Shown piece by piece: positions 17,128 to 62,500 of a DNA stretch of 64,000 nt. The notes under the pieces are model-generated. The model was not told where the DNA came from and searched no databases. It was given only the letters and a program-made list of their open reading frames with translations. A program made the position numbers and the translations under genes. Positions within the stretch are counted from its first letter, which is position 1; every line of letters begins with the position of its first letter. Origin of the DNA: Schmidtea polychroa (Eukaryota); NCBI GenBank assembly GCA_044892525.1, contig CM097885.1:7690001-7754000 (forward strand). Reading direction: 5' to 3'.

Positions 17128-17185
17128 CATTTGAAACAGGTTTAGTTCCTCTCAGGGGACTCCGTCCATTTTAAATTATTAATAA

Positions 17186-18196: not shown

Positions 18197-18204
18197 TTAT
18201 TAAA

Positions 18205-18801: not shown

Positions 18802-18895
18802 AATGGGTGTATTTTTAAAAAAGTAGATCAGGTTGCTATAGTTGCTTAAATTAATTGTCGACATTTTATTATTAAAAAATTAAATATCGTTGGTT

Positions 18896-19450
18896 TCAGT
18901 TATGGTTGAAAGCCAACCTATGAATCATTAATTTATGATCTTTAAATTCTTTATCACTTAGACCTTTTATATATTCAGGATCAGTATTAAAATATTTAAG
19001 TTCTAAACATATAGGATTAAAAACTTGAGAATATAAAGGTTTCTCGATTTCTCTCTCGGGATAAATAATTTCAACATTATAAATATCAAGATCAGTAATC
19101 TTTGTATCATATAACTTATTCAACTTTTCTAGATTTTTTATTATAGGGATTAAATTATTTCCAATAGGTAGAGTTGTCTTTAAATCACTTAGTATGAATC
19201 TCTTATCATCATAATTTGATAATGATACTTTTTGAGATTCTATCAAGTGAATATCATGGTTTTCACTTTTAAGTTGATGTATTTCATCAATTTTATCTTT
19301 ATGATTTGCATTCAATGTATCTATATAATCTTGATGAGAAAGATTCTTTGCAACCACTCTCTGTATTCCTTTACATCTGTTATCCTTTAAATTAGTAATA
19401 TTTTTTATAATTTCAAAAATGTTATTTTCTTGATTTTTAGTTTCCATCAT
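18896..19450 (-). CDS. Stand-alone paralogue of the pPolB C-terminal domain
   Basis: Aligns over ~160 aa with the end of ORF 19475..20839 (KGIQ, HxLKSE, NYDDKRFILSDLKTTLPIGN, ELKYFNTDPEYI). Confidence 0.85.
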   Translation of the reverse strand: MMETKNQENNIFEIIKNITNLKDNRCKGIQRVVAKNLSHQDYIDTLNANHKDKIDEIHQLKSENHDIHLIESQKVSLSNYDDKRFILSDLKTTLPIGNNLIPIIKNLEKLNKLYDTKITDLDIYNVEIIYPEREIEKPLYSQVFNPICLELKYFNTDPEYIKGLSDKEFKDHKLMIHRLAFNHN

Positions 19451-19474
19451 TTTATAGTGTTAAAATTCTAATTC

Positions 19475-23401: not shown

Positions 23402-23409
23402 TGATGATA

Positions 23410-23853
23410 TTATTTTTTTTTATTTTCTCTTATATATTGCATGATTGATCTGGGTCCTCGTTTTACTTCTGCAATTACATCGGTGTGATTGAAGTCATCC
23501 CAATTAAACTCTAGTTTTTCAGCTTTTTCAGTCATTGAGTTTGAATCAGAATCTTTTGCTTCAAGACCACAATCTTCTATGTGTCTTAAGTAAAAAGATT
23601 TTATCCTCATCGTTTTTCCACATGCTGAACATTCGAATATTTCTCTGTTTTTAGGAACTCCAATACAATTTTTAAAATGCTTCTTATAACCTGAAAATAA
23701 ATATCTATCCTTACATTTAGTACAGATTTTGGAATTAGTGTCATCTAGTGTGTTAGCTTTTATTAAATGGTCTTTTGATTTTTTATGAGATGTTAAAGCA
23801 GTTTTATTTTTAAAATTTTTTTCACAAATTTCACAATTGAAAATAGCTTCCAT
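23410..23853 (-). CDS. Zinc-finger protein, probably the N-terminal extension of pPolB separated by a 1-nt frameshift
   Basis: CEIC..HKKSKDH, CTKC..HFKNC, CSAC..HIEDC; ends in an A9 run plus TAA, 8 nt before the polB ATG. Confidence 0.7.
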   Translation of the reverse strand: MEAIFNCEICEKNFKNKTALTSHKKSKDHLIKANTLDDTNSKICTKCKDRYLFSGYKKHFKNCIGVPKNREIFECSACGKTMRIKSFYLRHIEDCGLEAKDSDSNSMTEKAEKLEFNWDDFNHTDVIAEVKRGPRSIMQYIRENKKK

Positions 23854-23926
23854 TTTTAAAAGAATCTTTTGGTTGGATACGATGTTTTGGTTTTGATATT
23901 AATTTTTATTTTTTTTAAATCTAAAA

Positions 23927-24259
23927 GTGATCAGGCGACCTAGATCATTATGAATTAGGTAATCTGATATTCTTATAACATTAAATCCTTATAACATTAA
24001 ATCCTTAAGACCAAGTAGTGAGGAATCTATGCATTCCGTTACCTTTTCTCGGAATTACTAATCTATAAATACATCTATTCCGAACTTTTTTAATTTTAAG
24101 GGAAGAAATTAAGGGTTAATGGCAATAGGGGACAAAGTTTAAAAGTTAAAAAAAGTGAAGAATATGGGGTAAAAAAGCATATAAATGTGGAAAATATGGG
24201 TCAATAGCGCTGTTTTTTTTTAGGGTTGGGGTGCTGGGGTGCATAGATTCCTCACTACT
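23927..24259 (-). repeat. Right TIR of the inner Polinton (complete, 333 bp)
   Basis: Reverse complement of 9289-9608 plus the terminal 14 bp; reads AGTAGTGAGGAATCTATGCACCCC from the end. Confidence 0.93.
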
Positions 24260-28874: not shown

Positions 28875-31724
28875 TTTAGATCATTGATTACTTAATTTTA
28901 AAATTAGACATTAATTTACTTATTTTACCAATAATTTCATGTGGTCATCTGGTTTTAAGTACTTGGTATCTAGTTGACAGTGCTTAGTACTAGGTATCTT
29001 ATACTTGGTTGTAAATACTTAGTAGGTGGTAGCTAGTTGTTGTTGGTTGTAGGTACTTGATTGATAATGCTTAGTACCTGGTTGATGTTGGTTGTTAGTA
29101 CTTGGTATCTAGTACCTAGTTGGTTGGTTGTTTTTGGTTGTTAGTATCTAGTTGTAGGTACTTAGTAGTTGGTTGATGATGCTAGTTGTTGACGGTTGTG
29201 AGTACTTGGTATCTGGTTGTTGTCGGTTGTTAGTACTTGGTATCTGGTACCTAGTTGGTTGCTATCAGGTAACTAGTTGTTAGTATCTAGTTGTATGTAT
29301 CTGGTTATTAGTAACTAGTTGTAAGTACTTGGTAGTTGGTACAGTGTTGTTTACTGATCGTTGTTATATAGTTGTAGGTACTTGGTAGCAGGTAATTGGT
29401 TGTTAGTAACTAGTTGTAGGTACTTAGTAGTTGGTTGATGATGCTTAGTACCTAGTTGTTGACGGTTGTGAGTACTTGGTATCTAGTTGTTGTCGGTTGT
29501 TAGCAGTTGGTAGGTGGTACCTAGTTGGTTGCTATCAGGTAACTAGTTGTTAGTATCTAGTTGTAGGTATCTGGTTGTTGGCGGTTGTTAGTACTTGGTA
29601 TCTGGTACCTAGTTAGTTGCTATCAGGTAACTGGTTGTTAGTAACTAGTTGTAGGTATCTGGTTGTTAGTAACTAGTTGTAAGTACTTGGTATCAGGTAA
29701 CTGGTTGGTTGGTTGTTTTTGGTTGTTAGTATCTAGTTGTAGGTACTTAGTAGTTGGTAATTAATGCTCAGTACCTGGTTGTTAGTTGATTGTTAGTATC
29801 TGGTACCTAGTTGGTTGCTTGATTTGATTGTTAGTACTTGATACCTAGTTGGTTGCTTGTTTTTGGTTGTTAGTATCTAGTTGTAGGTATCAGGTAACTA
29901 GTTGTTAGTAACTAGTTGTAGGTTGTAGGTGGTTGGTAATGCTTAGTAGCTGGTTGTTGTCGGTTGTGAGTAGTTGGTATCTGGTAACTAGTTGTTAGTA
30001 CTTGGTACCTAGTTGGTTGCTTGTTTTTGGTTGTTAGTACTTGTTAGGTGGTTGTAGGTACTTGGTAGGTACTTAGTAGTTGGTAATTAATGCTTAGTAC
30101 CTGGTTGATGTTGGTTGTATGTACTTGGTAGGTGGTTGTAGGTACTTAGTATCAGGTAACTAGTTGTTAGTAACTAGTTGTAGGTACTTGGTATCTGGTA
30201 ACTGGTTGTAAGTAACTAGTTGTAAGTACTTGGTATCAGGTAACATGTTGTTAGTAACTAGTTGTAGGTATCTGGTATCAGGTAACTGGTTGTTAGTAAC
30301 TAGTTGTAGGTATCTGGTTGTAAATACATGTTGGTACTAAGTTGTTGGTTTGTTGTTGAATTATTATTAAAATTTGTCTTTGAAAAATATTTCATAAAAA
30401 TTTCCATTAAAAATTATCTTAAAAATTTCCATTAAAAATTAGCATTGAAAAATATTCCATAAAAATTTCCATTATAAATTACCATTGAAAAATATTTCAT
30501 AAAAATTTTCATTAAAAAATTTCAATTCTCAAACACCTATTATTTCAACTTTTTGTTAATAAATTTAAAAGTCTTACTTTAATTTACTTATTACATTACT
30601 TTAATTTACTTATTTAAAAATTATTACTTTAATTTACTTATTTAAAATTTTTTACCATTGATTACTTAATTTTAAAATTTGGACCATCATTTACTTTAAT
30701 TCAAAAATTTGGACCATAATTTACTGTAATTCAATTTTTAGAACCATAATTTACTTTAATTTAATTTTTTAGAACCTAAATTTACTTTAATTTAAAAATT
30801 TGGACCATTATTTACTTTAATTTAAAACATTTGAACCATTATTTACTTTAATTGAAAAATCTGAGCCCATTAATTACTTTAATTCGAAAATATGAACCTT
30901 AATTTAATTTTTTAGAACCATAATTAACTGTAATTAAATTTTTAGAACCATTATTTACTTTAATTTAAAAATTTGAACCTTAATTTAGTTATTTGAGCCC
31001 ATAATTTACTTTAATTCAAAAATCTGAGCCCATAATTTACTTTAATTCAAATATTTTGACCATAATTTACTGTAATTTAATTTTTTAGACCCATAATTTA
31101 CTGTAATTTAATTTTTTAGACCCATAATTTACTGTAATTCATTTTTTAGACCCATAATTTGCTTTATTTTTAAAAATTTACCATGTTTTTTAGTGTAGAC
31201 CACCTTTTTGTATTGAAATTCTCAGGACCAAGGAGACCCACCTGAATTGACCTAGAAAAATCCATGCTTTTTTATTGAAGACCGCCTTTTTCGATTGAAA
31301 TTCTCAGGACCAAGGAGACCCACCTTAATTTAATTCGAAAAATCCATGCTTTTTTATTGATAGTCGGATTTTTGTATTGAAAATCCCAGGACCATCGAGA
31401 CCCACCTCACTATAGTGTGAAAAATCCTTGGCTTTTTTAGTGGTAGTCGGATTTTTTGTATAGAAAAAAATTTTTTGTATTGAAAATCCCAGGACCATCG
31501 TTTTTGTATTGAAAAATTTTTTTTGTATTGAAAATCCCAGGACCATCGAGACCCCCTCACTATAGTGTGATAAAAAAAAAATTTTGGACTAAAAATCCCT
31601 GAAAGTAAAAAAATGTGAGTTGCAGCAATTGCGTAATAAAAAGTTGCAGCAAAAAAAAGTTGCAGCAGAACCCCCCCCCCGGGGGGGGGGGGTCATTGCT
31701 GCAGTAAGCTACTAACTACCTACT
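28875..31724 (-). repeat. Right TIR arm of the outer element (uninterrupted, 2850 bp)
   Basis: Reverse complement of 5776-9290 joined to 24382-24755, with fewer tandem units in the distal block. Confidence 0.92.
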
Positions 31725-36240: not shown

Positions 36241-37020
36241 TTATCTCGGCGTAGTGTTGAATATAGGATTGTCTACATCTGTTAATTCACCATCGTCGTT
36301 GTTCTCCAATGACGCTTCGTTGACTGCCGGCCGTATGTCGGAATAGTGTCGCGGAATCCCGTTGATATCGAAGTTAGTCGATGAATTTACCTTCGTTATA
36401 ATCCCTTCACCCCATTTTGATGTGCACTTCGCGTTTGGTGGTTTAACGTAAACTGCATCGTCAACTTGGAACGACATTTCATGTGTCTTCTCTTCTGTAT
36501 AACAAGCGCCAACTCCTTTCCAACAATATGAAAACACGGATGAAGACGGCGGCATTCCGCACTTGTCATTGGGTTCTAGGTTATACCAATATACAATTTC
36601 CAATATTCCTTTGTTGGTTCTTGCTGCCTTGCATTTAATTGTACGATGGTTTCGTTCTATTATGCCGTTTCCTGATGGCCGATAAGCACATCGAAACACA
36701 CATTTCACACCCCATTTGCGACACAGTACTTTCATTTGTGTCGACCGAAATGATGTCGCATTATCAATCACCAGCTCATCAGGGGAACCTCGTTCTCTAA
36801 AGATCTGTTCAAGATTCCATGTAATGGTCTCCGCGTCTTCACCTCTTATTTCTCTCCAGAGAGCAAAACGACCCGGTCCACAATCAATCATAGTTAAATA
36901 AAGCTTACTTAGATAGTGTGTAACATTCATAGCCAGTCTCTTCCACGTCTCCTTAACGCTTAACTCTCCATGCTCCCATTTTACAGGCGGTGGATCTATA
37001 GATTGACATTCTCAACATTC
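36241..37020 (-). pseudogene. Ty3/gypsy integrase fragment
   Basis: ECQSIDP..WKRLAMNVTH (first catalytic Asp replaced by Asn), VIDNATSF, GNGIIERNHRTIK; no adjoining RT. Confidence 0.85.
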
Positions 37021-39490: not shown

Positions 39491-41112
39491 TCTTAGACAG
39501 AGCCCATCACCAACATAACTAATAAATTAATCCACACCAGAATAGTTGACAGACGAAAAGTGAATAGTGTTTTGGAGAATTAAATCAAAATAAATAAAAA
39601 TGAATAAAAAGAATATGATATTTTAAAAAATCCAAATAGTTTTCTGTGACTGACTTATTATTGTTGGGCTGGAACCGAGAATCGAGAGCTTGTTTTAATG
39701 AATCAAAAACACATAACATAAAAATCGCACCAAGTTAAATTAAAACACCAATCAATACGAATTAAAGTACATAACACATTGATGATAAATAAGACCCGGG
39801 TGATAAAATAAAGGAACGAAAATAAAGGTCGCAATCACTAACACAATTAGGAGAAACATCACATTCGGAATAGCTAACAACTAAGAAATAAAATAATAAT
39901 AAATAAAATAATGGGTAATAAATTAATTAATAATATGAAAAATTTCTAAATAAATAAATTTAAAATTTAAAATAAATTATCTAGTAAACTGGTAAAATAA
40001 TAAAAAGTAGAATAAAAGTAGTAAAATTAGATAAACCATAAAATTTATAAAACTAAATTGTTTAATGAAAACTAAAAATAAAACCAACAAAATTATTTAA
40101 ATTATAAAACTTATAAAACCAAATTGTTTAAATTAATGAAACTAAAGTAAAATTAACTGAACTTATTTAAATTATAAAACTTGTAAAACTAAATTAAAAT
40201 TAGCAAAAAACTATTTAAATTATAGAATTTATAAAAATAAATCTTAAAAATTAATAAAAATTAGAATTTTGATTAATTAAATTAATTAAATTAAAAAATA
40301 ATAATTGCACACATTCATGCATGCATGCAAAAATTAATCAGAATTGCCTCGCATTCTAATTGGATATAACAGCAGAGAATGCGTAGGCGTATAATTCAAT
40401 CAGTATAAATACTGAGTGAAATTTCATTTAAAAAAACTCTCTCGCTCCACTGGTTACACAACAGTTCATTTACTGGCAGTGAACATATGCTCTCAATTTT
40501 CGATTCCATGCCATCGCGGTGAGGTAAATTTGATTTTTGTTAATTTTATGTTAATGATTTATATGTTAATTTTACGTTAAAACTTATATGAAATAATATG
40601 TAATTTTTAGGATTTAGTAATTGAATGTCTGTTCTTTTGTGTCTGTTCATTTTAATTTTACCTTGGAATAATATTTTAATAGGAGTAAGATGAGTTTGAT
40701 TTTATTAATGACAAATTTATATGATGTAAAATGTAATTTGTAGGATTGAATAAAATTTTTTAATTGGATTTGTTTTTAATTGATTCTGGAGTCTTGTTTA
40801 TGATATTTTTTTGGATAATATGATAATGTAGGTTGGTGTTTTATGATATTTATGTGTCGATGGTCTGGACTGGGGGAAGGTTTGTGGATGGGCGGCACTA
40901 CGTGCTGTTGGTCGGCAGATGTTTCGCCAGTTGAGTCCATGGGGGTAGGGAATATAGATAGGGATATGAACGGTTAGAGGGGGAAAATCAATTTGCGATA
41001 GTTTAGGGCCTTATTTAGAGTTAGGTAGTATTGGACGGCTCAGTCACTTTTATTTTCATAGATATTTCCGAGTTAGGAGAAATAATAGGATAGTTATGTC
41101 CAGTTGTCGGTA

Positions 41113-42169
41113 TGTTGAGGTCTGTAAATTAAAATTAAAAATTTAAATAAAATTTAGGATAATAATTCAAATGGAAAGTAAGCGAGGAAAAATGGCGAAT
41201 AAAAGCGGGATCGTGCACAGAATTAATAGTAAAGGAAAGTGCGATGGAAACAGTATCAGAAAATGCAAAAAGCAATTACGAAAGGCGAGAATCCGGAAAT
41301 CCGAGAAAAATCAATAAAGGGAAAAATCATCGAAATCGAATGGGAAAAACGGGACAGGTATAGAATAGCTAATGGTCAACAAGATGATGGTTAGGGATTT
41401 ATCAGAAAAGGGTTAGGAAGGGTCGAAAAACATTCAAACGTATGAAAACAGAAAACGTTAATTAATTAATTAATTGGCTAATGGAAAACCCGAGCTAATG
41501 GGAAACCCGAGCCAATGGAGAACCCGAGAGATAAAGGAAACCCGAGCTGGGTAAACAAGAAGAAAGGCAAACAAAAGGAAGATTTGGGCCCATTAGCTTG
41601 ACACAATGATTAATGGGAAAAGAGTAAGGAGAAGATAGCGCGCGTAGGAAGACCGGTAGGGCCATTAATTATCTGGATTCGTTGGACCATTATGGGTGAC
41701 AGCCGAAGCAAACACGTAGGAGAAAATGTCAAACGAAAGATTGGCTCGGCAATAACCATTTGTCATCCTGATTTCGAGGAGTATATAAGCAAAGGGAAAA
41801 TCAGAGAAAATCGGCATTCTGCCTCAGCTAGGGTTCGAAGAATTAGACTGTAGGAAAAGTGGTAAACGATTTAGGGAAGTAGGGAAAAGAAGAAATAGAA
41901 TTAAGAATACGGAAAGGCGAAAAGAGATCAAACCAAACCGAAACCGAGGAAAACGAGAGTCAACAGAACTAAAGGATCAAAAGGTGAATATTGTTTGTTT
42001 GCAAAGCATCAACGCCGAGCAGAGAATCGTATAAAACTTTGATTGGTAATTGTAGCGTGATAATAAATTGTGAACCTGTTGTTTCAATATACGTTGGGTC
42101 GTTCATTGTTTTAATTTAAAGAACACAGGAGTCAGAGAGAACCGACTTGAAATAATCCAAAACCCAACA
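41113..42169 (+). repeat. 5' LTR
   Basis: TGTTG...CAACA; TATATAA at ~41782 and AATAAA at ~42062; matches 52653-53709 (one mismatch noticed by eye). Confidence 0.96.
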
Positions 42170-42176
42170 TATATTC

Positions 42177-42192
42177 TGGTGAGCCCAACGTG
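42177..42192 (+). promoter_or_regulatory. Primer-binding site, resembling tRNA-Lys(CTT)-type PBS
   Basis: TGGTGAGCCCAACGTG 7 nt after the LTR versus canonical TGGCGCCCAACGTGG; followed by ~72-bp tandem repeats to ~42440. Confidence 0.6.
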
Positions 42193-42593
42193 ATTGCAAG
42201 TCGGCGGAAAATTATTGAAAGTTAGTGAAAAAATTAATTGTTGAAAAAAAAATAGTACCGACGTGATAGAAAGTCGGAGGAAAATTATTGAAAGCTACTG
42301 AAAAAGAAATTATTAAAAAATTAGTACCGACGTGATTGAAAGTCGGCGGAAAGTTACTTAAGTTAGCGAAAAAGTTAATTATTGGAAAAGTACTACAGAA
42401 GTGAGTGAAAGTCGGCTGAGAATCATTAAAAGTAGTGAAAAAGTTGTGGAAAATAGTGTTAACGAGAGAGATATAAAAGGCTATTATTGGGAGATTTAAA
42501 AGAAGTTGAAAAGTAATTTTAAATTATTGTTTAACGTTTGAAGTTTAGCTCAAAGTGAACCGATACAACCTCAGAAGTCAGAAACAAGTCCAA

Positions 42594-45500
42594 ATGGCAA
42601 ATGATAATGCTGTTATGCCTCTCAATAGAGAGATGATTGATTTCGCAAGTTGCCAGAAATTACCCGTCAATCAATATGGAGGAGACCCTGTCGAATTTGC
42701 AGATTTCATGGAAGATTATTATATGTACGCCTCAGCATACGGATGGACACAAGCCATAATGGTTCAGAGATTCCCACTCTATCTGAAGGGTGCGGCAAGA
42801 GAAGCCTGGCAGCAGGTCGACAAACGAAATGTTGGTAATGATTGGACAAAATTGAAGGATGCAATGGCACTGAAACTGGTTGGTGGAGATATCAAAAGAA
42901 TCATGCGACAGAAATTTTATAATCGAGTTCAAGGCCCAGATGAATCGGTCAGTGAGTTTGCTTATCATCTGACCACTTTAGCAGATAAAGCCTTCGAAGT
43001 CAAACCAGATCAAGCAGATATGGCCAAGCAGGTTTAAGAGCTGTTAGAAGATCAGTTTATAACCGGAGTTCACTCCGAAATCAAAAAAGCCCTATGTTAT
43101 GTGGATTTTTCCAATTTCGATGAGCTCGTGAAGAAAGCCATGAAAATAGAGCTGAATTTGAAAAGTGCAAAAAGATCAGATGCTTTTGGAGTTAATGTGG
43201 AGAGACGTGAGCGATCAATTACGCCTGTGAGAGCACCATGGGATGAAAAGAAAATAAATCAAATCAGTAGTCCAATTTTGAGACCAAATAATAGATTTCA
43301 AGCCAGTAGATCAGCCATGAATGTACAATCAAATGGACAGGTAAATAATCCTCAATGCGAACATTGCAAAAAGTCTGGACACTACTCAAATCAATGTTGG
43401 TTCAAATATGGGAAAAATCCCAGCCCTAACAAGAGATTCACAGAAAACAAACGGATCAGCAGTGATGTCGAATGCTATCGATGTGGAAAGAAAGGGCATA
43501 TTAGCAGAAACTGTTTCACCAGATCAAGATCATCGTCAACGTCACCTTCACCACAAAGGGACAAAGTGAATACAAATGGACAGATACAATGTCATTCGTG
43601 CAAGGGATACGGCCACATGGCGCGATCATGCCCAAGGAACTCAGAAAGATTCAGCAGACCTATTTTAAAGAAATCAATCAGATTCCAAGAAGATATGCCA
43701 AACACCAGTAACATGACATATGCTCAAAGAGAGGAATTTCAAGACAAAATGGAAAAGGAATTTCGAGAAATGCGACAGAAGCTAAACAAACTAGTGGCGA
43801 AATTTGAATCAGATGAGGAAACTGAATCTCATATGATAATTGGAACCGTGTCAGAAGGTGAGGGAAAACCTGCCACGAAAGTGCGAAAGATCGCTTCAGA
43901 TGAGAATCCAACTGCACTGTTAGCCCGAGTTGAAAAATGGCTTGAGAAAATGGAAACTGACAACTCCCAGTTGAAACGATGGATCGCGGAACTCAGTGTG
44001 ATGTCACTAACCCAAAGCGAACTAAAGAGAGCCATAAATTTATGTGCAAAGTTAGTCAAAGGAAACAGAGACGATGAGATACTTAAACAAATGCAGAACT
44101 TTGGGAAGGCTTTACGGTCAACAATGGATTTAGCTGATATCATAGTGGAAACGACGGGACTTGATAATGTGAAGTGCCAATTCCGTGTAAATGCATACGG
44201 ACAAATCAGAGAGCTAAAGGAGCGAATACTGCGTCAATACAGTGGATGGCAAGTGCAATTAAAATTTGAAAATCGATGTCTGGAAGACGAAGAGTACTTA
44301 GTAGATTGCGGTCTGATACCAGGCTGGAAAAATAAAGTAAATGTCGTTAATGCTGTTAATACTTTGAAATCAGACAGACAAAATTGGGAAAAGATTCTAG
44401 CAGATTTACAAGATACCCTGTATGCAGGGAATAGAGATAAAATTAAATCGAGTATCGACTTCATAATGAGCATCGAAATGGATCGAGACATGAAAGAAGG
44501 GTTGTTTGAATGTATCGTACCGTATACGAATAAACCGACGAGTTATCAGGCAAAGCTAAAAGAGGTAATCCGAAAACTAGGACATGATTATGAGGCGGCA
44601 GACGATAGTGCGAAGTCTTTGATAATAGCGTTAAATATTGTGGATCAAAGGATTGAATATTATCAGGAACATTGGAGTGTAAAAGCAAAGAAAATACGAC
44701 AAAAAGCAGCGGAGATATTAGGTAATGAAGGAATTATCGTGTTGACGTTCAAAGGACGAGAATTGGATGATGAAGAATATTTATTAAACTACGGATGTAA
44801 CCAAAATTGTATTAATAATGTGTACGCAACAAAACAAAGTGATGAAATGGAAAGAGATGCGGTAATAGTACCGTTTTGGCCTCTATATGAGGAAATGGAT
44901 AATAATAATGTGGAGATTAAAACTGAAGTTGTAGATGACCCAGGAGAAATTGATCAAGAAATTAATGAATTGCAGAGATTAGAAACAATGGAAAAAGAGG
45001 AAATGGGATCGGAAAATGAAGTTGCAAGGGATATCGAGGAAATGAGCACCGATAATAAGGTACTACCGAGCATAGATGAGATGAAGAGCGAAGAGAACTT
45101 CGTTGAAACGAAAAATGACATTGAGATATGTCGGAAAAAACAGAATGATGCGGAAATTGAATCTTTGAGTTTAGATGAATCAAGCGAAACTGAACGTTTA
45201 GATGAATCAAGCAGGACTGAGCGAATATTAAAAAGTTTAGTTACGGAATTGTACTTGTTAGATGAAACTGAAACAGAAGGAGATGACACTTCGGAGGGGG
45301 AGAAAAGAGTTGTAAAAAGATTGGCAACGGAATTAAAGAGGAGATTACCGTCGATAATTAAAAGAAATTATGAAGAAAAGGAATTTTGTGAGGAAGCAGT
45401 AATTGAGGACCTAACACGAACTGAGTTAGATCGAGATGTAATATTGACAGTGTTAGCCTATATAATATTGGAGATTGGTATTTATGGTTGTCTGGAAAAT

Positions 45501-48500
45501 GACAGTTCAAAATCATTGATAAAGAAAGCTACGGAAATGACGAATAAATATTTGGCTAGGTGGATCGCAAACAATGGCGGATGGGAAAATTTGATACAAA
45601 AGGCTGAGAGCCCAAAAACCGAGACAGTGAGGAAAAAGGGAAAACTCGCATTTCAATGGTTGATGATTTCTATTATTATGTTATTGGGAATAATAAACAC
45701 GACGAATTCATTGGTGGCATACGACTGCTCCCAAACCGAAATGGGAAGAGTATATTCGTTGGTAAACGTAGCAGAGTGTTCGGATGCATATCCAGTAAAA
45801 TTTAAAGTGACAAATCCAGTAAAATATTATGTATATCAAGAATCGGGATTTCGACGAGTAAAGGTGAGAGAGTGTACAGTGAAACGAATTACTTTTGTAT
45901 TTTATTGTGGAAAATGGAGCCACTCATCGATGGTGAAAATGCAATCGATACCTAGACCGATAGAAATAATTCCAGAGAATTGTTTGGCAGCCTTTCAAAC
46001 AGGACAGTTGAAAATCAATGCAGATCTCAAACTACAAGCAAAGCTTAACCACAAAATCCGTGAGACTGTAACCGTGCGAGGGATAATAAAGTCGAATGGT
46101 GATTGCCAAGGCGAGCCATACAAAGTAGACGATGCTATAATGGACAAAGCCGTGGTTGTGGAAGAGTACATGTCAGAATTAAGAGAATTTGATGGATCAT
46201 TTGATGATGATACTGGTAAACTACAAACACATCCATTCTGCAACATGAAACAATCTAGCTGTCAGACAGGAGAATCAATCTTGGTGTACGATGTCGATAC
46301 CAAAAAGTGCAATTTAGTGCAATTGAAGTCAATGAGTGTTAAAGAAATAACGGGAGAACAGATCAGGGAAAAGCCTGAGAAAATAAGAATGGATCCAGCA
46401 ACGAGTACAACAACAAGAATCACACCTCTACGGATGAAAGATACTCCAACAGTGTTAATGTCAACCTCGGAGGAAGATGGGATGCGATTCCTGAGAAAAG
46501 AAACTAAAACAAAGTGTGGACAAAATGTCTATGAGACAAATTATAAAGGTATATATGTATCTCAGAAGATGATTACAGAGGCCCAAACAAACATACATGC
46601 CGGAGATATTAAGTTGACAAATTACTTTAATAACAAAATAGATTATTTATTTCACTTTGGTCAAAATACTGTTGAAAATGTGTACCGAGAAGTTATTATA
46701 AATGATTGCAATCTCAACAAAGAAATACTCCGAAATCGGATGGCAATGGCTATAACCAATCCTAATTTGGTAGCACCAATGTTAATTGCAGAAAATGGAG
46801 TGTTCGCCAGAATTTTCGGTGAAGCACTATATAGCTATAAATGTAAAGCGGTACCAGTTAAACTGACAAAGTATGACCAATGCACCAACGAGTTACCAGT
46901 GAATTTAAATGGAAAGTTGCGATTTATGGAGCCTGTAACACGAATCTTACTGGAAGAGGACGTGAAACCGAAAGTGTTACAGTGCAATAGATTGTTGGCA
47001 CCACTATACAGACTAACACCAGAATCTTGGATTGCATTACCAAATCATCGAGAAGTAAAGACACCGGAAAACTTAGAATTGACAGAATTACAATATCTGG
47101 TAAATTTTACGTCGTTAGAAAAATTGTCGCAAAGTGGAATTTACTCGAACGAAGACATTGAGGAAGCTCGCAGAAACTTGTTATTTCCATCAAAGAAAGA
47201 AAGAGTAATAATGGAAATGGTAGATACAATTCTCCCAAGCGGAAGTGGGAAGGTAAATTATGAGTATTTGTTAACTCCAGATCATTACAAGAAAGCGACG
47301 TATAATACAATGAAAAAGATCTGGGGAAAGTTTATGTTCATTGGACAAGCGTGTGCCGGATTGATTGGAATTTACGTAATATGTGTTGTAATCAAAGTAA
47401 TAATATCGCAGGTCCTGTCAACACACAGATTATACGCGATCACAGGTTGGTCGTGGAAACTAGTAATTGGTTGCATACCACTATTGGCTAGATTCTTCAT
47501 TACTCATCATCAATATCAATAGTTGGAGATACTCAAGGCGCGAATATTAAAGAAGAAAAAGGTGAGCTACGCTAGTACTACCCCTTCAAGGGACGAGAAT
47601 AACGACAATGACAACGAGGGTGATAGTGCACCGTTATATGTTGACAATCAAGAACTAAGTGGAATGAATAAAGAAGCGTTGAGAACCTATCAAATCTTAA
47701 AAGAGCCACTGTTGAATGCGAGTAGCGTAGACACGTTTAAAAAATTGTGTATACCAAAATCATTTATGCAACAAGCACCAGTGTATCCAGTTGATCGATT
47801 ACGAGAGATGAAACCAGTGGAAAATATCGCATTACAATGTGAAGGAATGGTAGGAGAGAGAATCGAGCCTTCTAGCGCAGAGATCGAGAGAAAAAACATG
47901 TTAGGCTTACCATGCAACTACTCAATGATGACATTAACAAAAAGAGGAAAGCAACCCCGAATATTTATACAAGTGAACAAACATAAAGTGGAAGCTTTAG
48001 TCGATTCGGGATCTAGTCACACAATAATATCGGAAAATGTATTAAACGCGAAGGAAAAAATGCGAATAAAGCCTACCGACGAAATAGTGAGGTCATTATC
48101 AAAAAATGAATTAAACATAATTGGACAACTTAACGTCATATTCCATATTGGAGATCGAATAATAGCGCAAGATGCGCTCATAATGAAGGGAAGTCCAGCA
48201 CGATGTCTGATCGGCATGGATATATTAGAGCAGCTGGACGGAGTCTCACTTGATTTAAAGACAGGTAATTTGATAGCAGGAGAAACAGGAGAAATAATTC
48301 ACAGGGCAGGTGAAGTGTTTGTGAATCAGACATTGACAATACCACCACAATCGGAGATGGTATATTGTGCAAATACCATGAGTGTGGATAATGGTGATTT
48401 TATATTCGAACCAAATGAAACGCTAATCAAAAAATATGATTTACCGATATGTGACGAAGTTGTCAAAGTGGAAAATCAGATAGTACCATTCCATATAACG

Positions 48501-49646
48501 AATAGCAGTAAGAAACCGGTTCAGCTACACCCAAAAACAAAATTGGGAAAATTATCAAAAATGTCTATTGAAACAAATTGCAAAATACCAAGAAACGTCA
48601 AAGTGTATAAGGAGCCTGAAGTGGTAAGCAATGATTTAAATGAGATGCAGAAAAAGGAATTCACAAAACTGTTGAGAAAATACCGAGATATCTTTGCTAA
48701 ACACGAATATGATTTAGGTTTAACCAATGTAATTGAGCATGAAATACCGTTATTAGACGAAACTCCAATAAAAATAAAGCCATACAGAATCCCCTACGTT
48801 CATCAAGATGAAAGTGATAGACAGATTACAGCAATGAAGGAATTTGGAATAATTCGAGATAGCGCGTCACCATTCTCCTCATCAATAGTGATAGTTAAGA
48901 AAAAAGATGGAGACTTACGATTTTGCGTAGATTATCGGAAGCTAAATCAAGTTACGAGGAAAGACACTTATCCAATTCCGGTACCCCAAGAAATGTTTGA
49001 TCAAATGGGAGAGGCACGATATTTCACAGTTATTCATTTAAACAAAGGGTACAATCAATTTAGAGTAAAAGAGGAAGATAGAGGAAAGACGGCGTTCTCG
49101 GATGGCAAAGGACTGTATGAGTTCAATGTGTTACCATTTGGATTAACAGGAGCCCCAGCTACATTCCAACGAGGAATGAATTATGTGTTACGAGGAATTC
49201 GACATGCATTGGTATAAGTCGACGATATAATAATATTTTCAAATGATTTTGAAGAACATCTGAAAGATGTAGAAACTGTATTTAAACGGCTCAAAAGTGC
49301 AAAATTAAAAATCAAACCATCGAAATGTGAATGGGGCAAAGCAGAAGTGATTTATGTTGGACATATAATATCACGGCGAGGGTTACAAACTAATCCAGAT
49401 AACATCAAAAAAGTGGAAGAGTACCCAGTACCAAAAGATGCCGATGAGGTTAGAAAATTTTTAGGTTTGGCTAGCTATTACCGAAAATTTATAAAAGATT
49501 TCTCTCATATCGCACAACCATTGAATACGTTACTAAAGAAAAACAATAAATTTATTTGGGGACAAATGCAACAAAACGCTTTCAATACATTAAAAGAGAA
49601 ATTAGTAACAACTCCTATATTAAGATGTCCAGATTTTACAAAACAG
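42594..49646 (+). pseudogene. Single-frame polyprotein Gag-UBL-UBL-Bcl2-like-Env(class III)-PR-RT with three in-frame stops (43035, 47520, 49215)
   Basis: All four ORFs share one frame; three CCHC knuckles, LVDSGSSH protease, LRFCVDYRKLN, LPFGLTGAPATFQ, V*VDD (YxDD), truncated at PILRCPDFTKQ. Confidence 0.93.
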
Positions 49647-50267
49647 TCTAATATTAATAATAATGGTAATAATGATGAAAGAAAAAATATAAATAAAAAA
49701 AAAAAAAAATTACCTTGCGACTGGGAATAAATTAGACAAATATTTTGCACATAAAAATCGATCAAACCGTAAAGACACACACACACAGACAGACACACAA
49801 GCATATCCCATCAACTGCTCAACTCTGTTATTAACCACAATTTTATCCATATTCTTGGTAAACCGTATTCATCTTGAACAATAACAACAACCACAGCTAA
49901 TATCATCACGCTACTAACAATGTAGTATAAGAAATTTTCAATAAATTTTACTGTTGATTTCCACCAAAGTCGCCAGTCTAATCAATTAATGAATTCATAA
50001 ATTCGCACACAAAAAATTGTAAAAATGCAAATTGTAACAAAATATAATTTAATCAGATACTATTTAAAAATTTCTTTTTATTCACACCACATAACCAAAA
50101 TAGGAGCAATATACACTTTCAAAATGCAGGAATATCTTTTTAATATCCTGAAATAATAAACTAAATGTAGGAATATCTCTATAATATCCTAAAATAATTA
50201 ATTTCAATACTCTGAAACTACAATAACCTTACCAGACTGTCGTCAGTCTACTTGATTTATTAATTTT

Positions 50268-50457
50268 TAATAGACGTCCCGATGAAAAATTATTTACCTC
50301 AATTAATAGACGTCCAGATAAAAAGTATTTCCCTTAATAAACGTCCCGATAAAAAATTATTTACCTCAATTAATAGACGTCCAGATAAAAATTATTTCCC
50401 TCAATTAATAGACGTCCCGATAAAAATTATTTCCCTCAATTAATAGACGTCCCGATA
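50268..50457. repeat. ~34-bp tandem repeat (TTAATAGACGTCCCGATAAAAATTATTTCCCTCAA)
   Basis: About six copies inside the replaced segment of the LTR element. Confidence 0.85.
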
Positions 50458-50567
50458 ATTGCGATAATTGGAGTAGGATTGTGATAAATAATAATATTGA
50501 TAAAATAATAATATTGATAATAATAATGGTGATGATAGTGGTAATAACAGTAATAATTATAACAATA

Positions 50568-50616
<49 letters not shown>

Positions 50617-52652
50617 TTGATAGTAGTAATAATAATAGTAGTAGTAGTAATTTTTCAAGTTTATTTCTCATTTAAATTGATATCTCTTTATTGCTAAATA
50701 TAATAAAAATATATTAAAAATATTATTTATAACCTAATATAAAAAAAAGTCCTAACCTGAATATTTAAGCTATATTTACGTACTTATTTCTTAATTCATT
50801 TGTTTAAATTATACTAATTTACTTCAATCTTAAAAATATAAATTAATAAACCCAAAAAAAATCTTTTGTAAAAAATATTTCAGAATATAAAAAATTTCAT
50901 TATTTTATTGAACCTCCGATTTGAGCTGGAATTCTGAGATTTGATCGACAGATTAGATAAATATACATTTCAAACCTGTGCTATAATTCTCATAATTTAA
51001 TGTTGTCAGTGCATATCGATTTTTCCCCAACTTATCAATCATCGGTTTTGATAAAGAATCAATGACTAAGAATAATTCGAATTTTTATACAATTAATACA
51101 AAAAAAAAATTAATCTAACCATTCCGTGTTTCTTCTTCGACGTTTTGTAGCATACATGGTTTTTATAACCCAATCGTTAACCATAAATAAGTGTGAATGA
51201 AATTTAGGCCAAACTCTAATAAAAAAAAAAAAATAAATAAATATATTTTCGTTAAATTCGTTTGCGAAAATCAAGTGATTGAATTTTCCTAGAAATCTCC
51301 TGCTTTTAAAAAGCTATATTTTCTCTCTTTCAGCCGTTGACAAATGGCCAAGAGAGTAGGAGAGAAATTTCCAACCATAAAAGAAACTGGAATTAGTTAT
51401 GTGGATCCAATCAAATTCATTTTAAAAATATTGTTGATATTTCTTCCCAGACCTGTACGATTAGAAATAGGTTGTGTGCGACAGCAAATGCGAGTAACGA
51501 TTATAGTCACAACATTAAAAATTCGATTGAAAGAGAAAATTTATTTCCTTTGCCCGATGAAAAGGTATTACATTATCAGTCAATTATGCGTGCGTGTTAA
51601 TTAGTTTTTTGATCAAAAAACAATTACAAATCTAAAGTAATTTAAATGAAAATTCATTGGTAGATATTTTAAGCTAATGCAAATTTATCAATTAATTGCA
51701 TTTACCGATTCGCCTTGGTTTATAAAATTATGTATCCAATATATGTATCCAAAATTCTATTTATTAAAATTTACTAAATTTCTTGAAGTTTTAATCGGTT
51801 AATTAAATTTTTTTAAAGTGATTAAATTTAATATATTCAATCTTTCAATATACGAAATTGATCCGAAAACCCTGTAAAGTATTTTCTTGATAATAGTTCT
51901 TTAAAATAAAACGAATTTCAGATTTTGAGGATTTATAAATAGATACATTCATTTTATTTATCTAATTAACAACAAACACAAAAATAATCTATTATCAAAA
52001 ATAACATCAATAGATTAACATCGAAACGTTGGTGAAATGCGATTTCCTATCCTTGACATGAAGTGCAGCCTTTGTCGTCTCGTGAGCACACCATATTCTC
52101 GCCTTTAATTGATAACTTCTTTAGGATGCCTTTGTCATCCAATATATTTTCGTAAAGCTTTTTAACGTTTTCACCCATTATTAATTTAGAAGCTTTAGTT
52201 AAACTGCCTGTCAACTAAATTTAGAATCATTTTTAACTTGCAAGTAAATTTCTCAAACTTTCTTGGTAATATCCAAATTATCAACACAAATTGAATCAAG
52301 GCGCTTAAATCAAGTCCATTTAAACTAGTCGATTAATTTTCTTAATAAAGCGAAAATGGCATCAAATTAAATTAAAATATTTTAGTTTTACATCGGAAAA
52401 ATTATTATAGATTTTAGAGTTTAAAATTTATTGTTTATTGTAGGAAAGAATAACAGTAATAATAATAATAGTAACAATAATAATATTAATAATAATATTA
52501 CTCGTAAAATAATTAAAAGATTTCTTTCTAAAAATATTTAATAATTTAAAAGTATAAAGTACAATTTAAATGCATGTAAAATTACATCCAAGGACATAAT
52601 CACAGCAAAACATAGATTTCGAGGACGAAAAAATTTTTTAAGGGGGGAGATA

Positions 52653-53709
52653 TGTTGAGGTCTGTAAATTAAAATTAAAAATTTAAATAAAATTTAGGAT
52701 AATAATTCAAATGGAAAGTAAGCGAGGAAAAATGGCGAATAAAAGCGGGATCGTGCATAGAATTAATAGTAAAGGAAAGTGCGATGGAAACAGTATCAGA
52801 AAATGCAAAAAGCAATTACGAAAGGCGAGAATCCGGAAATCCGAGAAAAATCAATAAAGGGAAAAATCATCGAAATCGAATGGGAAAAACGGGACAGGTA
52901 TAGAATAGCTAATGGTCAACAAGATGATGGTTAGGGATTTATCAGAAAAGGGTTAGGAAGGGTCGAAAAACATTCAAACGTATGAAAACAGAAAACGTTA
53001 ATTAATTAATTAATTGGCTAATGGAAAACCCGAGCTAATGGGAAACCCGAGCCAATGGAGAACCCGAGAGATAAAGGAAACCCGAGCTGGGTAAACAAGA
53101 AGAAAGGCAAACAAAAGGAAGATTTGGGCCCATTAGCTTGACACAATGATTAATGGGAAAAGAGTAAGGAGAAGATAGCGCGCGTAGGAAGACCGGTAGG
53201 GCCATTAATTATCTGGATTCGTTGGACCATTATGGGTGACAGCCGAAGCAAACACGTAGGAGAAAATGTCAAACGAAAGATTGGCTCGGCAATAACCATT
53301 TGTCATCCTGATTTCGAGGAGTATATAAGCAAAGGGAAAATCAGAGAAAATCGGCATTCTGCCTCAGCTAGGGTTCGAAGAATTAGACTGTAGGAAAAGT
53401 GGTAAACGATTTAGGGAAGTAGGGAAAAGAAGAAATAGAATTAAGAATACGGAAAGGCGAAAAGAGATCAAACCAAACCGAAACCGAGGAAAACGAGAGT
53501 CAACAGAACTAAAGGATCAAAAGGTGAATATTGTTTGTTTGCAAAGCATCAACGCCGAGCAGAGAATCGTATAAAACTTTGATTGGTAATTGTAGCGTGA
53601 TAATAAATTGTGAACCTGTTGTTTCAATATACGTTGGGTCGTTCATTGTTTTAATTTAAAGAACACAGGAGTCAGAGAGAACCGACTTGAAATAATCCAA
53701 AACCCAACA
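52653..53709 (+). repeat. 3' LTR, preceded by polypurine tract AAGGGGGGAGA
   Basis: Direct repeat of 41113-42169. Confidence 0.96.
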
Positions 53710-55518
53710 GGTAGATAAAGTAGGTTTAGGTAATATTATAGAAACCACGAATAGTTAAGACATTCGATCGTTCAGGATTAGAAGTACAGGCAGATCCCTG
53801 CTCAAATTTTCATGAGAAGTGTTGAAACATGTTTATTAACTTGTGAATAAGGGCCAATCCCTGCTCAAATTTTTTGAAGGATAATTTGGATATTTTAGGG
53901 AGTATATAACAATAATTATTAGATGGACAATAAGGGAAGAGTTGGAAATACCCTTAATTGAGGACCGCAAATGATGTTAAAACAGCATACATAGTGAATA
54001 ATGACGTAAGACCTTCTATCGGCCGTCTAGAACCCGAAGAGAAAATACAATGGGGAGTAGTTTTAGCAATAGAGCTCACCTGCTCATTGCTTTTTCGCCT
54101 TTGTGTACAGTACCAACATGGTCGTCGCCATGGGTACACAAATGGTTTAAGGTGCAATAGTCATGGAGGTGCTTAGGAAAGAGTCGAGCAGATATCTAAA
54201 TTACCCCTGACGTATTTAAAATTCAAAATGACACACCCCTAAGTAACCAACATTATTCAGTAATAATTTGCATTGGCGAAAAACATTTGTAAAGATTAAC
54301 AATTACATTTATAATAATAAAGGTGGTGATGCAAATTTTGAGACCCATATGAAACTGAAAGATAGAATAGGTCCCTGCACAAGTTTTTTTAGGAAACTGC
54401 GACGAATAACATCCGCTGAGAGAATTTGTTTATTTGCATAATTAAATGAAGATAATGACCAATAGACGTTAGAGTTCTCGCACAGTTACTCTTCGGGAAG
54501 TAGTGATGTTAATTGAGACTGAGGCAGTAGTTGGTGGAACGCCGACACGCTCCTCGTAATCTTTTTTGGGAATTTCTGCAGTAAGAAAAATAATAAGGCA
54601 TACAATACCGACTATAAAGAATAAAAAGTAATACTTACGAAAACCATTTTATTGGTAGTCAAATACCCGAAAGGGAGTATAGTTTGGAAATAATTTCGTG
54701 AAATCAGCTCACCAACCAATTAAATCTTTACCACATTATACATTTTAATATGGTTACTAAAAATGGTAATCATGAGTGTAGAAATACCATATTAAAATAA
54801 TTTATCTTTTCGGGTTAAGATCGACTGACTGTTGTGTCGTACTGAGAATCAGAAAGCTTAAATATTTATATGTCTAAAGGGAAATCAGAAGTGATTCTTA
54901 GTCAGACGACCACATGACTATTGAAATTAACTTCCTGCATACCCATAGAGATGGGCATGTTCGTACTGTATACAGTGGTTGAATGTGACTAATACTACTC
55001 TCTGCTTAACATCCACCAGGAAATCTAAACGGCAGGTAGAAGGTCTACCTTCAAAGATGATTAATTACTATAAAAAAAGATTATTGATACCAGGGTTCAT
55101 AATCATTTAAAATCGTTAACCAATGTACTGTGTTGGAACCCATTAAAGAAAAACACATAATAATTTTTAAAAAAATTACTAAGTTATATTAATTATATAC
55201 ACAGACAAATGGCATAAACGAAAAATGGAAATATATAACTAAAGAAACTCTTACAAAAATTCCATATAAGGGTTTATCATGTATAAAGTTCAAATAAAAG
55301 TTACTGATTGATTGAACAGCCACCTTTTATATCAGTTTTACCCTTTTGGGAAAACTGATATTTTCTTGCAATACCATAATAAGTAAACCATTTCAACACA
55401 AATAATGCTTTTTGGTGTAAATTTAAATATTTATAAGAAAATATTACTGAAAAACTTGTTGTATCTTTTAAGATACTTTGATTATTTGCTAGTTAAAGAA
55501 AAAATCTATGAGTCTAAA

Positions 55519-59507: not shown

Positions 59508-62500
59508 TATTAGGATGTTCATCCTGTAAAACATTAAAATCAGTTTTTGCTTCCATAAATTTTATTTCAGTAAATATCAGTATCAAATTATATCTTCTTT
59601 AAACTTTCTTATTTAAACAAATTTTCTACGAAGATATTTTTAATTAAAATATCTTCTTATTTTTTTTAATCTAATATTTAATTAATCTAAAATTTAATTT
59701 TTAAAATTTTCAATTTAAAAATTTCTTCATCATAAAACTTCCTCATATCCCCCTTCTTAAGAAATTTTTAAGTTTTTCCACATTTCTTTCGATCCTTTTT
59801 CCATCTTCATTTCTTAAGATGTATCGTCTGTCATGCACTTTCTCTATCACTTTGTACGGACCTTCATACCTGTCCTGGCCTTTGTGGCGTGTTTCTACTT
59901 TTACTAATACTTCTTCTCCTACATTGAATTTTCTCCTTGTTTGTTCTTCTAGTTCTTCCTTTATCGGTATTTCTTTGGACCCGTACCATTTTTCCCTGCT
60001 AATCTTTTTTCCAAAAACTATCTCTGCCGGGCTTTTCCCTGTCGTTTTTGTTTGGTTGCATTCAAAGTGAATTCGACTTCTGGTAATATCTCTGCCCAAT
60101 CCGTCTTCTTTCTATCCTGTAAAGTAGCATTTATCAAATCCCGTATTGTCCTGAATTGTCTTTCTATCTGACCGTTTGTTTGGTAATGGTATGGACTCGA
60201 AAACATAATTTAATATCTAGCATCTTTGTGAATTCTCTCATCATTCCTGATTCAAACGCCTTTCCGCAATCAACTCTTATCTCCTTTGGGCATCCAAATC
60301 TTAAAATCCACTTTTCTAAAATCGTTTTCTTTATTGTTTCTTCGTCTTGTTTTGTTATCGCTGTCAAGACTTGATACTTACTATACTGATCTATTATGCC
60401 CAATATATACTTCTTACGTCCTTTTGTTTCTGTCAACGGTCCACATATATCTACGAATATAATTTCGAACATTTCCTTCGAATCTTGTTTTTTTACTGGT
60501 TCTTTCGTTGTTATTGTTAAAGCCTTGGTTTTTTTGACAAATCTCACAACTTCGAACTATTTCCTGAATCTGACTCCACAGGTGTTTTCCAACATATCTG
60601 TCTTTCATATAATCGGCTATCTTCTCGACTCCAGCATGACACAATAGTCTATGTATTTCCTTTATTGTTTCTTGTAACTCATTTTCAGGTATCATCGTTT
60701 TCTTTCGTACTTCTTCTACAATTCCATGTTGGATGTTGCTTCTTCCTTCTTCTCTGATCGAGTCTACTAATCTGGTTTTTATCTTTCCTTTATTAGCTTC
60801 TTCGTGGGCCATTTGACATTGAACACACGTGTCACATTTAGTTCTCGATACCATGTCTGCATTTTGGTGATTAATACCCTTTCTGTATTCTACTCTTATA
60901 TCTAAACTGCTCAAATAATTGATCCATGTTTGGAATTGTGAAGTAATCGGCTTCTTGGTTGTCATCATAAACGTGATTGCCTTGTGGTCTGTCCTGAGCG
61001 TGAATCTTCTTCCGTAGAGATAGTGCTTAAAATGAATGCAAAAATGATATACCGCCAATAGTTCCTTTCTTGTAATACAATATCCTTTCTCGTGGCTCGT
61101 CATCGAGTGTGATCCATACGCAATTACTCTTTCCTTTCCATCTTTATCTCTTTGTGAAAGTACTGCTCCAATGGTATCGAAACTAGCGTCGGTATCTAAA
61201 ATGAACTCCTTTTTCAGATCCGGAAAACATAAGATTGGCGCCGTCGTGAGTGCTAATTTCAATCCCTCAAACACGCTATTCGTTCCTTCACTCCATTCTA
61301 ATTTTTTGTTACTTGTTCCGCTACATAATTGTTCTAACATCCTTGCCTTCTTTGCATAATCACTGATGAATCTTCTATAATAATTGCAAATACCTAAAAA
61401 GCTTCGGAGTTTCTTTACGCAATTAGGCTTCCCAAAGTTCTGTATGGCCTGAATTTTAGATGGATCTGTCTGTACTCCTTCCTTGCTGATTATGTGTCCT
61501 AAGAATCTGATTTCTTCCTTTATTATTTGGCATTTTTCTGGATTAATCCTTAGGCCTGCTTCCTCAATCGCCTTTAACACTTCTCCGAGTATTGTATAGT
61601 GTTTCTCTTTACTGCTTGAATAAATCAAGATGTCGTCCAAATACACCATTGCTCCCTTTATTTTGCCTAATACTTTTGTCATCATTTCTTGGAACGTACC
61701 TGGTGCTGCTGCAATTCCAAACGGCATTCTGTTGAAACAATATTGTCCGTTCTTTGTTGAGAAAGCTGTTTTCTCCTGTGATTCTTCTTCTAGTTCCACT
61801 TGGTAATATGCATTACCTAGATCGATTGAGCTGAAAAAGACGGATCCTCCTAACAAATCCAACATGTCGTCTATGTTTGGCATTGGAAATGCCTGCCTCT
61901 CTGTTACCGCGTTCAGCTGTCTAAAGTCCAAGCATAGTCTAATATCCTTTTTCTCTTTTTTCCATACACATATTAGCGGTGTATTCCATGGAGAGTTACA
62001 TTTCCGTATAATTCCATTTTCTTACAAATTTTGTATTGCTTCTTCAATCTTTGATTCCAAATTTAGTGGTTGGCGATATGGTTTTATGTTTATCGGCTCA
62101 CCTCTTGTAACTATCTTGTGTTTTACCAAATGAGTGCGACCCACATCCCATTTATCTGCCATAAACACGTTTCCACTGTTTGTTATAATTTCCTTTAATT
62201 TGCTATCTTCATTGATCTTTAACTGTTCCAACGCTCGTATCAATCGTTCTTCATCCTTTATTTTTCTGCCAAATTTTGCTTCAATGTTACAAATATAGTT
62301 CTTGTCTTTTTCACTAGCCTCGATATCTTTAATTTTTAACAGTCTAAATCCAAATGTTTCTTGTAATTCGATTCATCCAATCACATCTGGTGTCACTTTC
62401 TCCGCCACAATGAATATAACTTCCTTCGAAACATTTCCAATGGTTACTTGCACCTTCGTTCTTCCTATTGTCTCGATCGTACTCCCGTTTGCGCATCGTA

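Follow-up and report, generated by a model that had tools for sequence, protein, structure and literature searches.

A BCL2-like motif was noted by Grohme 2018 in the planarian long terminal repeat (LTR) retrotransposons Burro-2, -3 and -4, as related by Arkhipova and Yushenova (2019; PMC6431247). The passages of that paper on Burro also place a Ubi2/SUMO-like domain ahead of BCL2 and a mononegavirus-related Env in frame between BCL2 and the protease, and they propose that Burro interferes with host apoptosis. The IAP of Burro1 is reported, second-hand, to guard stem cells from apoptosis (PMC13465017, for Lee et al., Dev Cell 2026). Here we examine a domain of the first kind in a retrotransposon at 41113–53709 of a 64,000-nucleotide stretch of Schmidtea polychroa (assembly GCA_044892525.1, contig CM097885.1, positions 7,690,001 to 7,754,000, forward strand). 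This whole stretch is the window, and positions below are its own unless a locus is named. An earlier note, made from the letters alone, had mentioned reports of anti-apoptotic cargo in giant planarian LTR elements; the statement is correct according to PMC6431247, and it removes most of the novelty. Cargo of this kind in the Burro family is already in print, and the window family itself may or may not be. We found no functional test of the Burro BCL2-like domain in the literature; Grohme 2018, Lee 2026 and the supplements may hold more or may name the window family.

How closely does the window element resemble Burro? Its domains run in the order Gag, ubiquitin-like, Bcl-2-like, hydrophobic segment, Env, Pol. 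As in Burro, on the description given in PMC6431247, a single polyprotein joins Gag, three CCHC knuckles, a ubiquitin/SUMO-like domain, a BCL2-like domain and a mononegavirus-type Env, followed by protease (PR), reverse transcriptase (RT), RNase H (RH) and integrase (IN). The window family is compact, however. At 17.8 kb, with one open reading frame (ORF) of 3334 amino acids (aa) holding Gag, CCHC, Env, PR, RT, RH and IN, a sibling copy falls well short of the >30 kb of Burro. Neither BIR-RING nor TRAF-MATH was detected in the window family, and Pfam gave no ankyrin match. Where Burro has a dUTPase-like domain between PR and RT, the family has a spacer of about 200 residues without a Pfam dUTPase match (the Burro paper used HHpred). 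From its size and cargo we conclude that the window element is a compact Burro-type relative, not Burro1.

Burro1 (GYPSM1) has its own counterpart in the genome. Family E, one of the relatives described below, has an ORF of 4791 aa with MATH (4873 aa in Burro1), a downstream BIR-RING gene and the Bcl-2 domain in the same place; RT identity between the window family and this Burro1-like family is about 51%. The Burro1-like family also carries separate downstream ORFs (L101:8302-9762, L102:5-1180, L102:3823-4845), which encode a TRAF zinc finger with MATH (487 aa), a BIR-RING protein (392 aa), a coiled protein (533 aa) and a protein of 341 aa. Burro1 B-IAP and the window domain are alike in being anti-apoptotic-type cargo of the same element clade. 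They differ in that B-IAP is a BIR-RING protein from a separate ORF whose function, on the account cited above, has been tested; no such protein was detected in the window family.

The domain and its immediate surroundings comprise the following features, all within the frame of ORF 43038-47522 (+).

45198–45605 (+): Bcl-2-fold domain with seven predicted helical segments (profile, Pfam, alignment-based model, fold search)
45306–45344 (+): helix at the BH3 position, lacking the Gly-Asp core (by eye, against the BH3 consensus)
45429–45440 (+): eroded BH1, D-R-D-V where N-W-G-R is expected (HMMER alignment to Bcl-2, column counts)
45561–45584 (+): BH2 motif WIANNGGW (sequence)
45645–45701 (+): hydrophobic segment behind a basic patch, RKKGK; putative Env signal peptide and tail anchor (hydropathy)

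Is this truly a Bcl-2 domain inside a retrotransposon polyprotein, as the earlier note proposed? Taken alone, the window domain matched Pfam Bcl-2 (PF00452) at E 0.002–0.0036, with 19.1 bits against a cut-off of 31.4 bits, and its best match in the PDB (phmmer) had an E of 0.12. An alignment of 33 transposon domains, stop-free rows chosen among those fetched, was more telling; rows inside one family are near-copies, and counts over the 33 represent about eight lineages. The profile of these transposon-only rows matched Bcl-2/Bcl-xL in the PDB at E 3e-7 over the span from BH1 to BH2. PF00452 was matched by 28 of the 33 rows at E ≤ 0.01, and some copies of family B exceed the Pfam cut-off. Even a profile built from the window family and families C and E only, none of them picked by Pfam Bcl-2, reached Bcl-2 at E 8.6e-4. 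The Pfam search recommended beforehand gives a weak match for the lone window copy; the relatives make the identity clear. Protein database searches yielded no true relative among 505 and among 1068 candidates; the libraries hold few such polyproteins, and the blanks are little informative. One partial Env match appeared among 7514 candidates, and two repeat-protein matches in a library of 1.84 billion sequences were rejected as spurious.

Structure prediction led to the same family. The AlphaFold model of the domain, made with an alignment that held transposon rows only, has a mean local confidence (pLDDT) of 76 and a predicted template-modelling score (pTM) of 0.77. In the VIA search it superimposed on Hydra Bcl-2-4 with a Z of 14.9 and a root-mean-square deviation (rmsd) of 2.8 Å over 135 residues. 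Among the matches listed, the top 36 of 50 were cellular or viral Bcl-2-fold chains, with Z from 14.9 to 6.2; the first unrelated match had a Z of 5.1. The Foldseek matches listed for this model were likewise all of the Bcl-2 family, with template-modelling (TM) scores of 0.54–0.71 and a best E of 1.4e-3. Two results run the other way: Foldseek gave nothing at E ≤ 0.001, and the model made from the single sequence (pLDDT 71) is an up-down bundle with a TM score of about 0.2–0.3 to Bcl-2. That second model had no clear match in the PDB, viral or VIA searches and has been superseded by the alignment-based one. The likeness to cellular Bcl-2 proteins (Hydra HyBcl-2-4, Trichoplax trBcl-2L2, Bcl-xL, schistosome BCL-2) comprises the fold (Z 13–15, rmsd 2.4–3.1 Å), BH2 and a hydrophobic C-terminal segment. 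The differences are the lack of NWGR and of the BH3 Gly-Asp, an identity of 12–15% and the setting in a polyprotein. We have hardly any doubt that 45198–45605 encodes a Bcl-2-fold domain, albeit a divergent one, and that the element around it is a compact Ty3/gypsy retrotransposon of Burro type whose Env is read in frame between Gag and Pol.

What remains of the Bcl-2 homology motifs? Every motif quoted in the earlier note was found, all in one frame. Helix 1 of the folded domain starts at about 45204, slightly before the onset given in that note, and the domain ends near 45605. BH2 is the best preserved: GGW occurs in 33/33 rows and the first Trp in 30/33 (Tyr in family E). In 20000 ORF shuffles the pattern W[ILVM]xxxGGW appeared five times. 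The BH3-like helix (RVVKRLATELKRR, at 45306-45344) is where it was said to be. It reads L-A-T-E-L, and Gly-Asp is absent by eye across the aligned families. The sequence quoted there for the hydrophobic central helix, VILTVLAYIILEIG, starts at 45438. BH1 had been described as not conserved; it is better called present and eroded. The first BH1 column is N or D in 32/33 rows, and the region reads LFRTGINGDRV in family F. Since the BH1 Trp and Gly are lost and the BH3 Gly-Asp is missing, the domain is neither a canonical pro-survival Bcl-2 nor a BH3 donor. BCL2L15/Bfk and BID are its top look-alikes by language model (0.90–0.92, of low recognition value), and in Bfk, too, the BH1 Trp has given way to a basic residue (PMC8814693). 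Unlike the window domain, these two proteins hold a true BH3 that cleavage uncovers; conservation among the transposon families does not extend to the acidic loop that follows helix 1. A caspase-activated, Bid-like role was rejected on these two grounds, the absent BH3 core and the family-specific loop.

If the domain is real, how widely is it shared? To reach further families the genome was searched with PF00452, BIR, Env and single domains. At least seven element families hold the domain, one of them (E) with Burro1 architecture. It occupies one fixed place, directly followed by a hydrophobic segment and then by the Env start motif, in families A (the window family), B and B′ (L061, L066), C (L091), D (L114, L115), E (L113), F (L130) and G (L137). 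The other families also have a segment resembling 45645-45701 ahead of their Env start motif, and a spacer of 44 to 72 residues separates BH2 from the Env start. The Pfam Bcl-2 search led to family B, and B in turn to B′, F and G, which amounts to selection; Env and BIR served to reach C and E, and C led on to D. Where the earlier note looked to a different fold, together with loss of WIxxxGGW in related elements, as the outcome that would sink its claim, we found a matched fold and an invariant GGW.

Trees of the domain, RT and Env have in common a split of A/C/D from B/F/G and from E. The RT and Env trees are quick trees, G is absent from the RT tree, and E sits on a long branch, weakly placed in the domain tree. 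The comparison with host Bcl-2 genes, suggested beforehand, set the transposon rows apart: ten lie on one side, with eight host-type and three Polinton-borne Bcl-2 rows opposite (86/89, not starred). Among those eleven rows no host donor was resolved. Origin from the Polinton-borne genes is unsupported, the transposon rows forming their own side of that branch. Judged from these trees, a single capture that predates the separation of the families, with a host Bcl-2 gene as its source, followed by inheritance together with RT and Env, is most likely.

Host-like Bcl-2 genes are repeated on several chromosomes within Maverick/Polinton-like repeats (L046-L060, L077-L088; e.g. G000:C1:15405873-15406136). 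They are intronless in L053-L058 and have one short intron in L046-L051, L059 and L060. Three Polinton loci have some 13 kb in common at 98–99% identity; the Bcl-2 gene lies in this shared stretch, as does an ORF of 1389 aa akin to the polymerase of the Maverick in the window. At G000:C4:89.9-90.8 Mb (L031-L037) a canonical host Bcl-2 gene, NWGR included, stands in a cluster of seven nearly identical copies.

How is the domain constrained? The ratio of non-synonymous to synonymous substitution rates (dN/dS), a test also proposed in the earlier note, was 0.24, 0.12, 0.13 and 0.18 for the domain in the four between-family pairs with usable dS, as against 0.37–1.17 for the linker in the same pairs. 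The first 300 residues of Env gave 0.05–0.18 between families and the 300 residues upstream of the domain 0.16–0.35. For family A against C the domain ratio was 0.38; dS is saturated for most regions of A against C or D, and for the domain of A against D, so that selection on family A rests on weak data. Two recent pairs gave 0.25 and 0.85. Shared within-family variants numbered 8 synonymous and 9 non-synonymous, a ratio of 0.32 that is biased, the 29 loci having been picked for similarity in the domain itself. Judged by the substitution ratios, the domain is under purifying selection between families.

What might such a domain do at this place? The hydrophobic segment 45645-45701 lies 22 residues past GGW and continues into Env. 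The earlier note took this tail to double as the Env signal; the segment is there, between domain and Env, and hydropathy and position suggest the signal-peptide role. N-glycosylation counts were uninformative on topology. Stop-free copies would make one polyprotein, in which the segment would lead Env into the endoplasmic reticulum (ER) as an internal signal peptide. The simplest topology would leave Gag to Bcl-2 cytosolic, Env luminal and Pol cytosolic again. Upon cleavage at the segment, the Gag/ubiquitin-like/Bcl-2 part would stay in the cytosol, anchored by the same segment in the manner of a cellular Bcl-2 tail, and the element protease may trim Gag off it. With a groove remodelled so as to work without NWGR, the anchored domain could then bind the pro-death Bcl-2 proteins of the host and so favour survival of the expressing cell.

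For such a groove the analogues are vaccinia N1 and orf virus ORFV125, also Bcl-2 folds borne by mobile elements with an altered BH1. N1, which has acidic residues where G and R are expected, still co-precipitates Bid, Bad and Bax (PMC2885619), and ORFV125, whose motif is SPGR, binds more weakly (PMC9027176). Both viral proteins come from separate genes in large DNA viruses, and their partners have been measured; our domain belongs to a reverse-transcribing element, is known from sequence, and has its tail in common with Env. On the strength of these precedents, and because the same clade carries an IAP, we consider it possible, at somewhat less than an even chance, that the domain acts as a membrane-anchored, non-canonical pro-survival factor. 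A bolder version is doubtful: that it functions as a Bcl-2 protein in its own right, that within the Burro radiation it is the host-control cargo of greatest age and widest occurrence, predating Burro1's IAP, and that, anchored through the Env signal peptide, it keeps planarian cells alive without NWGR, its many copies raising the survival threshold of the host.

Several observations tell against a pro-survival role. An ER-inserted signal segment need not arrive at mitochondria. The NWGR columns of BH1 hold Trp in 0/33 rows and Gly in 0/33 (Asp 21, Glu 8 and Asn 4 at the Gly position), and the Arg column holds Arg/Lys in 16/33 and Val in 16/33, the window family among the latter. PMC9027176 also states that the BH1 Gly and Arg matter for BH3 binding, and Bfk, in which Arg replaces the BH1 Trp, is described in PMC8814693 as having no groove and binding no BH3 peptide. 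The window domain has Arg at that same position. The domain also evolves faster than Env and RT, with identities of 36–38% for A against C or D where Env has 63–73% and RT 87–88%. A complex predicted between the domain and a host BH3-like stretch (L034) scored 0.01; the alignment was not used, and the result is uninformative either way.

The loss of the BH1 Gly and Trp in all 33 rows and of the BH3 Gly-Asp would also be expected of a host modulator that dispenses with the groove, the fold being kept as a protein-binding scaffold acting on innate-immune, ubiquitin or ER-stress signalling. The poxviral proteins A46, A52, B14 and K7 provide the model. The ubiquitin-like domain upstream, the MATH and TRAF added in family E and a fast-evolving surface around an invariant GGW core all fit such a scaffold, and A52, A46 and B14 are among the fold matches listed (Z 7.5–6.2). 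Yet the model is far nearer to canonical Bcl-2 (Z 13–15), even if predictors favour well-known folds, and the BH2 motif and hydrophobic tail are retained; we regard this explanation as rather unlikely. Might the domain instead serve the particle? Together with the Env signal segment it could tether Gag to the Env-bearing membrane, in the manner of a matrix or leader peptide used as a spacer, and leave the death pathways of the host untouched. It does stand directly ahead of the signal-like segment in every family examined, it is inherited together with Env, a single-ORF layout requires some cytosolic domain at the membrane crossing, and IAP and MATH cargo are confined to family E among the families checked. 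But the spacer that follows BH2 differs in length as given above, a tether has no obvious need of a Bcl-2 fold, and a host-derived death-regulator fold beside other apoptosis cargo points to a host target. A structural role is, in our estimation, unlikely.

Erosion of BH1 and BH3, conservation below that of Env and Pol, a dN/dS near that of the 300 residues upstream and the one recent pair at 0.85 could all be read as the mark of a relic, a captured gene that has lost its function and is constrained by frame and by folding inside the polyprotein. Against this, the domain is full length in all families despite RTs of only about 50% identity, its GGW is invariant, and its dN/dS lies below that of the adjoining linker; a relic is improbable. 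Finally, an ordinary helical spacer might resemble Bcl-2 by chance. The sub-threshold scores of the single sequence, its model unlike Bcl-2 and the absence of a true relative from the protein libraries would be compatible with that. The profile match over BH1-BH2, the fold Z of 14.9, the family B copies that pass the Pfam threshold and the annotation already in print (PMC6431247) largely refute it, and we give chance likeness almost no weight. The membrane-anchored pro-survival role, with its stated reservations, remains the reading that we prefer.

Any function is a property of the element family, because the window copy is itself broken. The remaining features of that copy are these.

41109–41112 (no strand): left target-site duplication GGTA, repeated at 53710-53713
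41113–42169 (+): 5′ LTR, TG...CA, 1057 bp, 1 mismatch in 1056 against the 3′ LTR
42177–42194 (+): putative primer-binding-site-like stretch beginning TGG (from sequence)
42594–43037 (+): Gag N-terminus and capsid part, PF03732, E 4.7e-10; closed by an in-frame stop in the window copy
43356–43631 (+): three CCHC zinc knuckles (sequence, Pfam)
44142–44321 (+): weak ubiquitin-like domain, Pfam ubiquitin E 5.5e-4, under the cut-off
45714–47519 (+): Env, Monjiviricetes-type fusion glycoprotein, PF24664, E 1e-92
47349–47405 (+): transmembrane helix of Env (hydropathy)
47520–47522 (+): in-frame stop ending Env in the window copy (sequence)
47949–48242 (+): aspartic protease, E 1.7e-8
48894–49646 (+): reverse transcriptase and start of RNase H (Pfam), with an in-frame stop at 49215-49217
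49708–52652 (+): AT-rich 3′ region; polypurine tract at 52640-52650 (sequence)
52653–53709 (+): 3′ LTR (match to the 5′ LTR)

A second ubiquitin look-alike at about 44670-44810 was seen by eye; self-BLAST did not recover a second copy. The near-identical LTRs (1057 bp, 1 of 1056 aligned bases differing) and the 4-bp duplication indicate that insertion was recent. The copy carries stops at 43035-43037, 47520-47522 and 49215-49217 and one deletion near 49646-49708, which took the remaining RNase H, the integrase and the C-terminal module. As the stop at 43035-43037 parts the capsid portion from the rest, the Gag-Bcl2 product envisaged in the earlier note is impossible from this copy. The stretch 49650-52650 was considered as a foreign insertion and rejected as such; parts of it match the sibling's 3′ region, which indicates a deletion in the window copy instead. 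No BIR-RING or TRAF-MATH gene was detected in the AT-rich 3′ region 49708-52652.

Relatives in the genome are numerous: 150 scored matches were all 92–100% identical across the region, several within 3334-residue open frames (the 150 were scored out of 1300 first-look candidates, a figure that is not a copy number). Reads cover 44400-46400 in 30/30 bins in four of 21 listed sequencing runs, whose RNA type is only guessed, and expression is not shown thereby; none of the runs containing the region is recorded as RNA. Runs holding this region stand under three organism labels; four of them (X1, X3, X10, X14; two labels) have most differences from the window in common, and one 5.9-kb contig covers the region with 82 differences in 2001 bases. 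Differences shared among runs of different labels could reflect recent between-species sharing or a matter of labelling.

In families A, B, D and E the polyprotein continues past the integrase into a second, terminal module (L068:859-1986; also L062, L144, L146), deleted in the window copy. It comprises a signal-like hydrophobic segment, some 200–370 residues without a Pfam name (checked in A and B) and a C-terminal transmembrane helix, and from this layout it may be a second surface protein. Family B has in addition a second ORF of 721 aa (L062:1800-3962; L146), for which Pfam gave no match. It has a relative downstream of family D (E 1e-14); no counterpart was detected in family A.

Elsewhere in the window lie a second gypsy RT-RH-IN fragment (60048-62171, −), about 40% identical to the family of the window element, and an integrase fragment (36241-37011, −). 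A Maverick/Polinton at 9300-24231, with inverted repeats at 9304-9636 and 23899-24231, encodes a double jelly-roll capsid, an integrase-phospholipase A2-like fusion, an A32 ATPase and a split polB; three Bcl-2 queries revealed no Bcl-2-like gene in it. Long inverted arms of 30–31-bp and irregular tandem repeats (6467-9290 and 28875-31524) flank the Maverick region.

What does the domain mean for the Burro clade? The existence of the cargo having been published as a motif annotation, ours is not its discovery. To that annotation we add a supported fold, a groove motif eroded in all families examined, and the presence of the domain, with evidence that it is selected, in a compact family without the IAP of Burro1. 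Should the domain turn out to be inert or structural, it would count as a captured spacer of the ordinary kind. It offers a test case for a Bcl-2 fold working without NWGR, and the compact, IAP-less family would allow a direct test for a second, older anti-death route in the mutualism between planarian hosts and their transposons.

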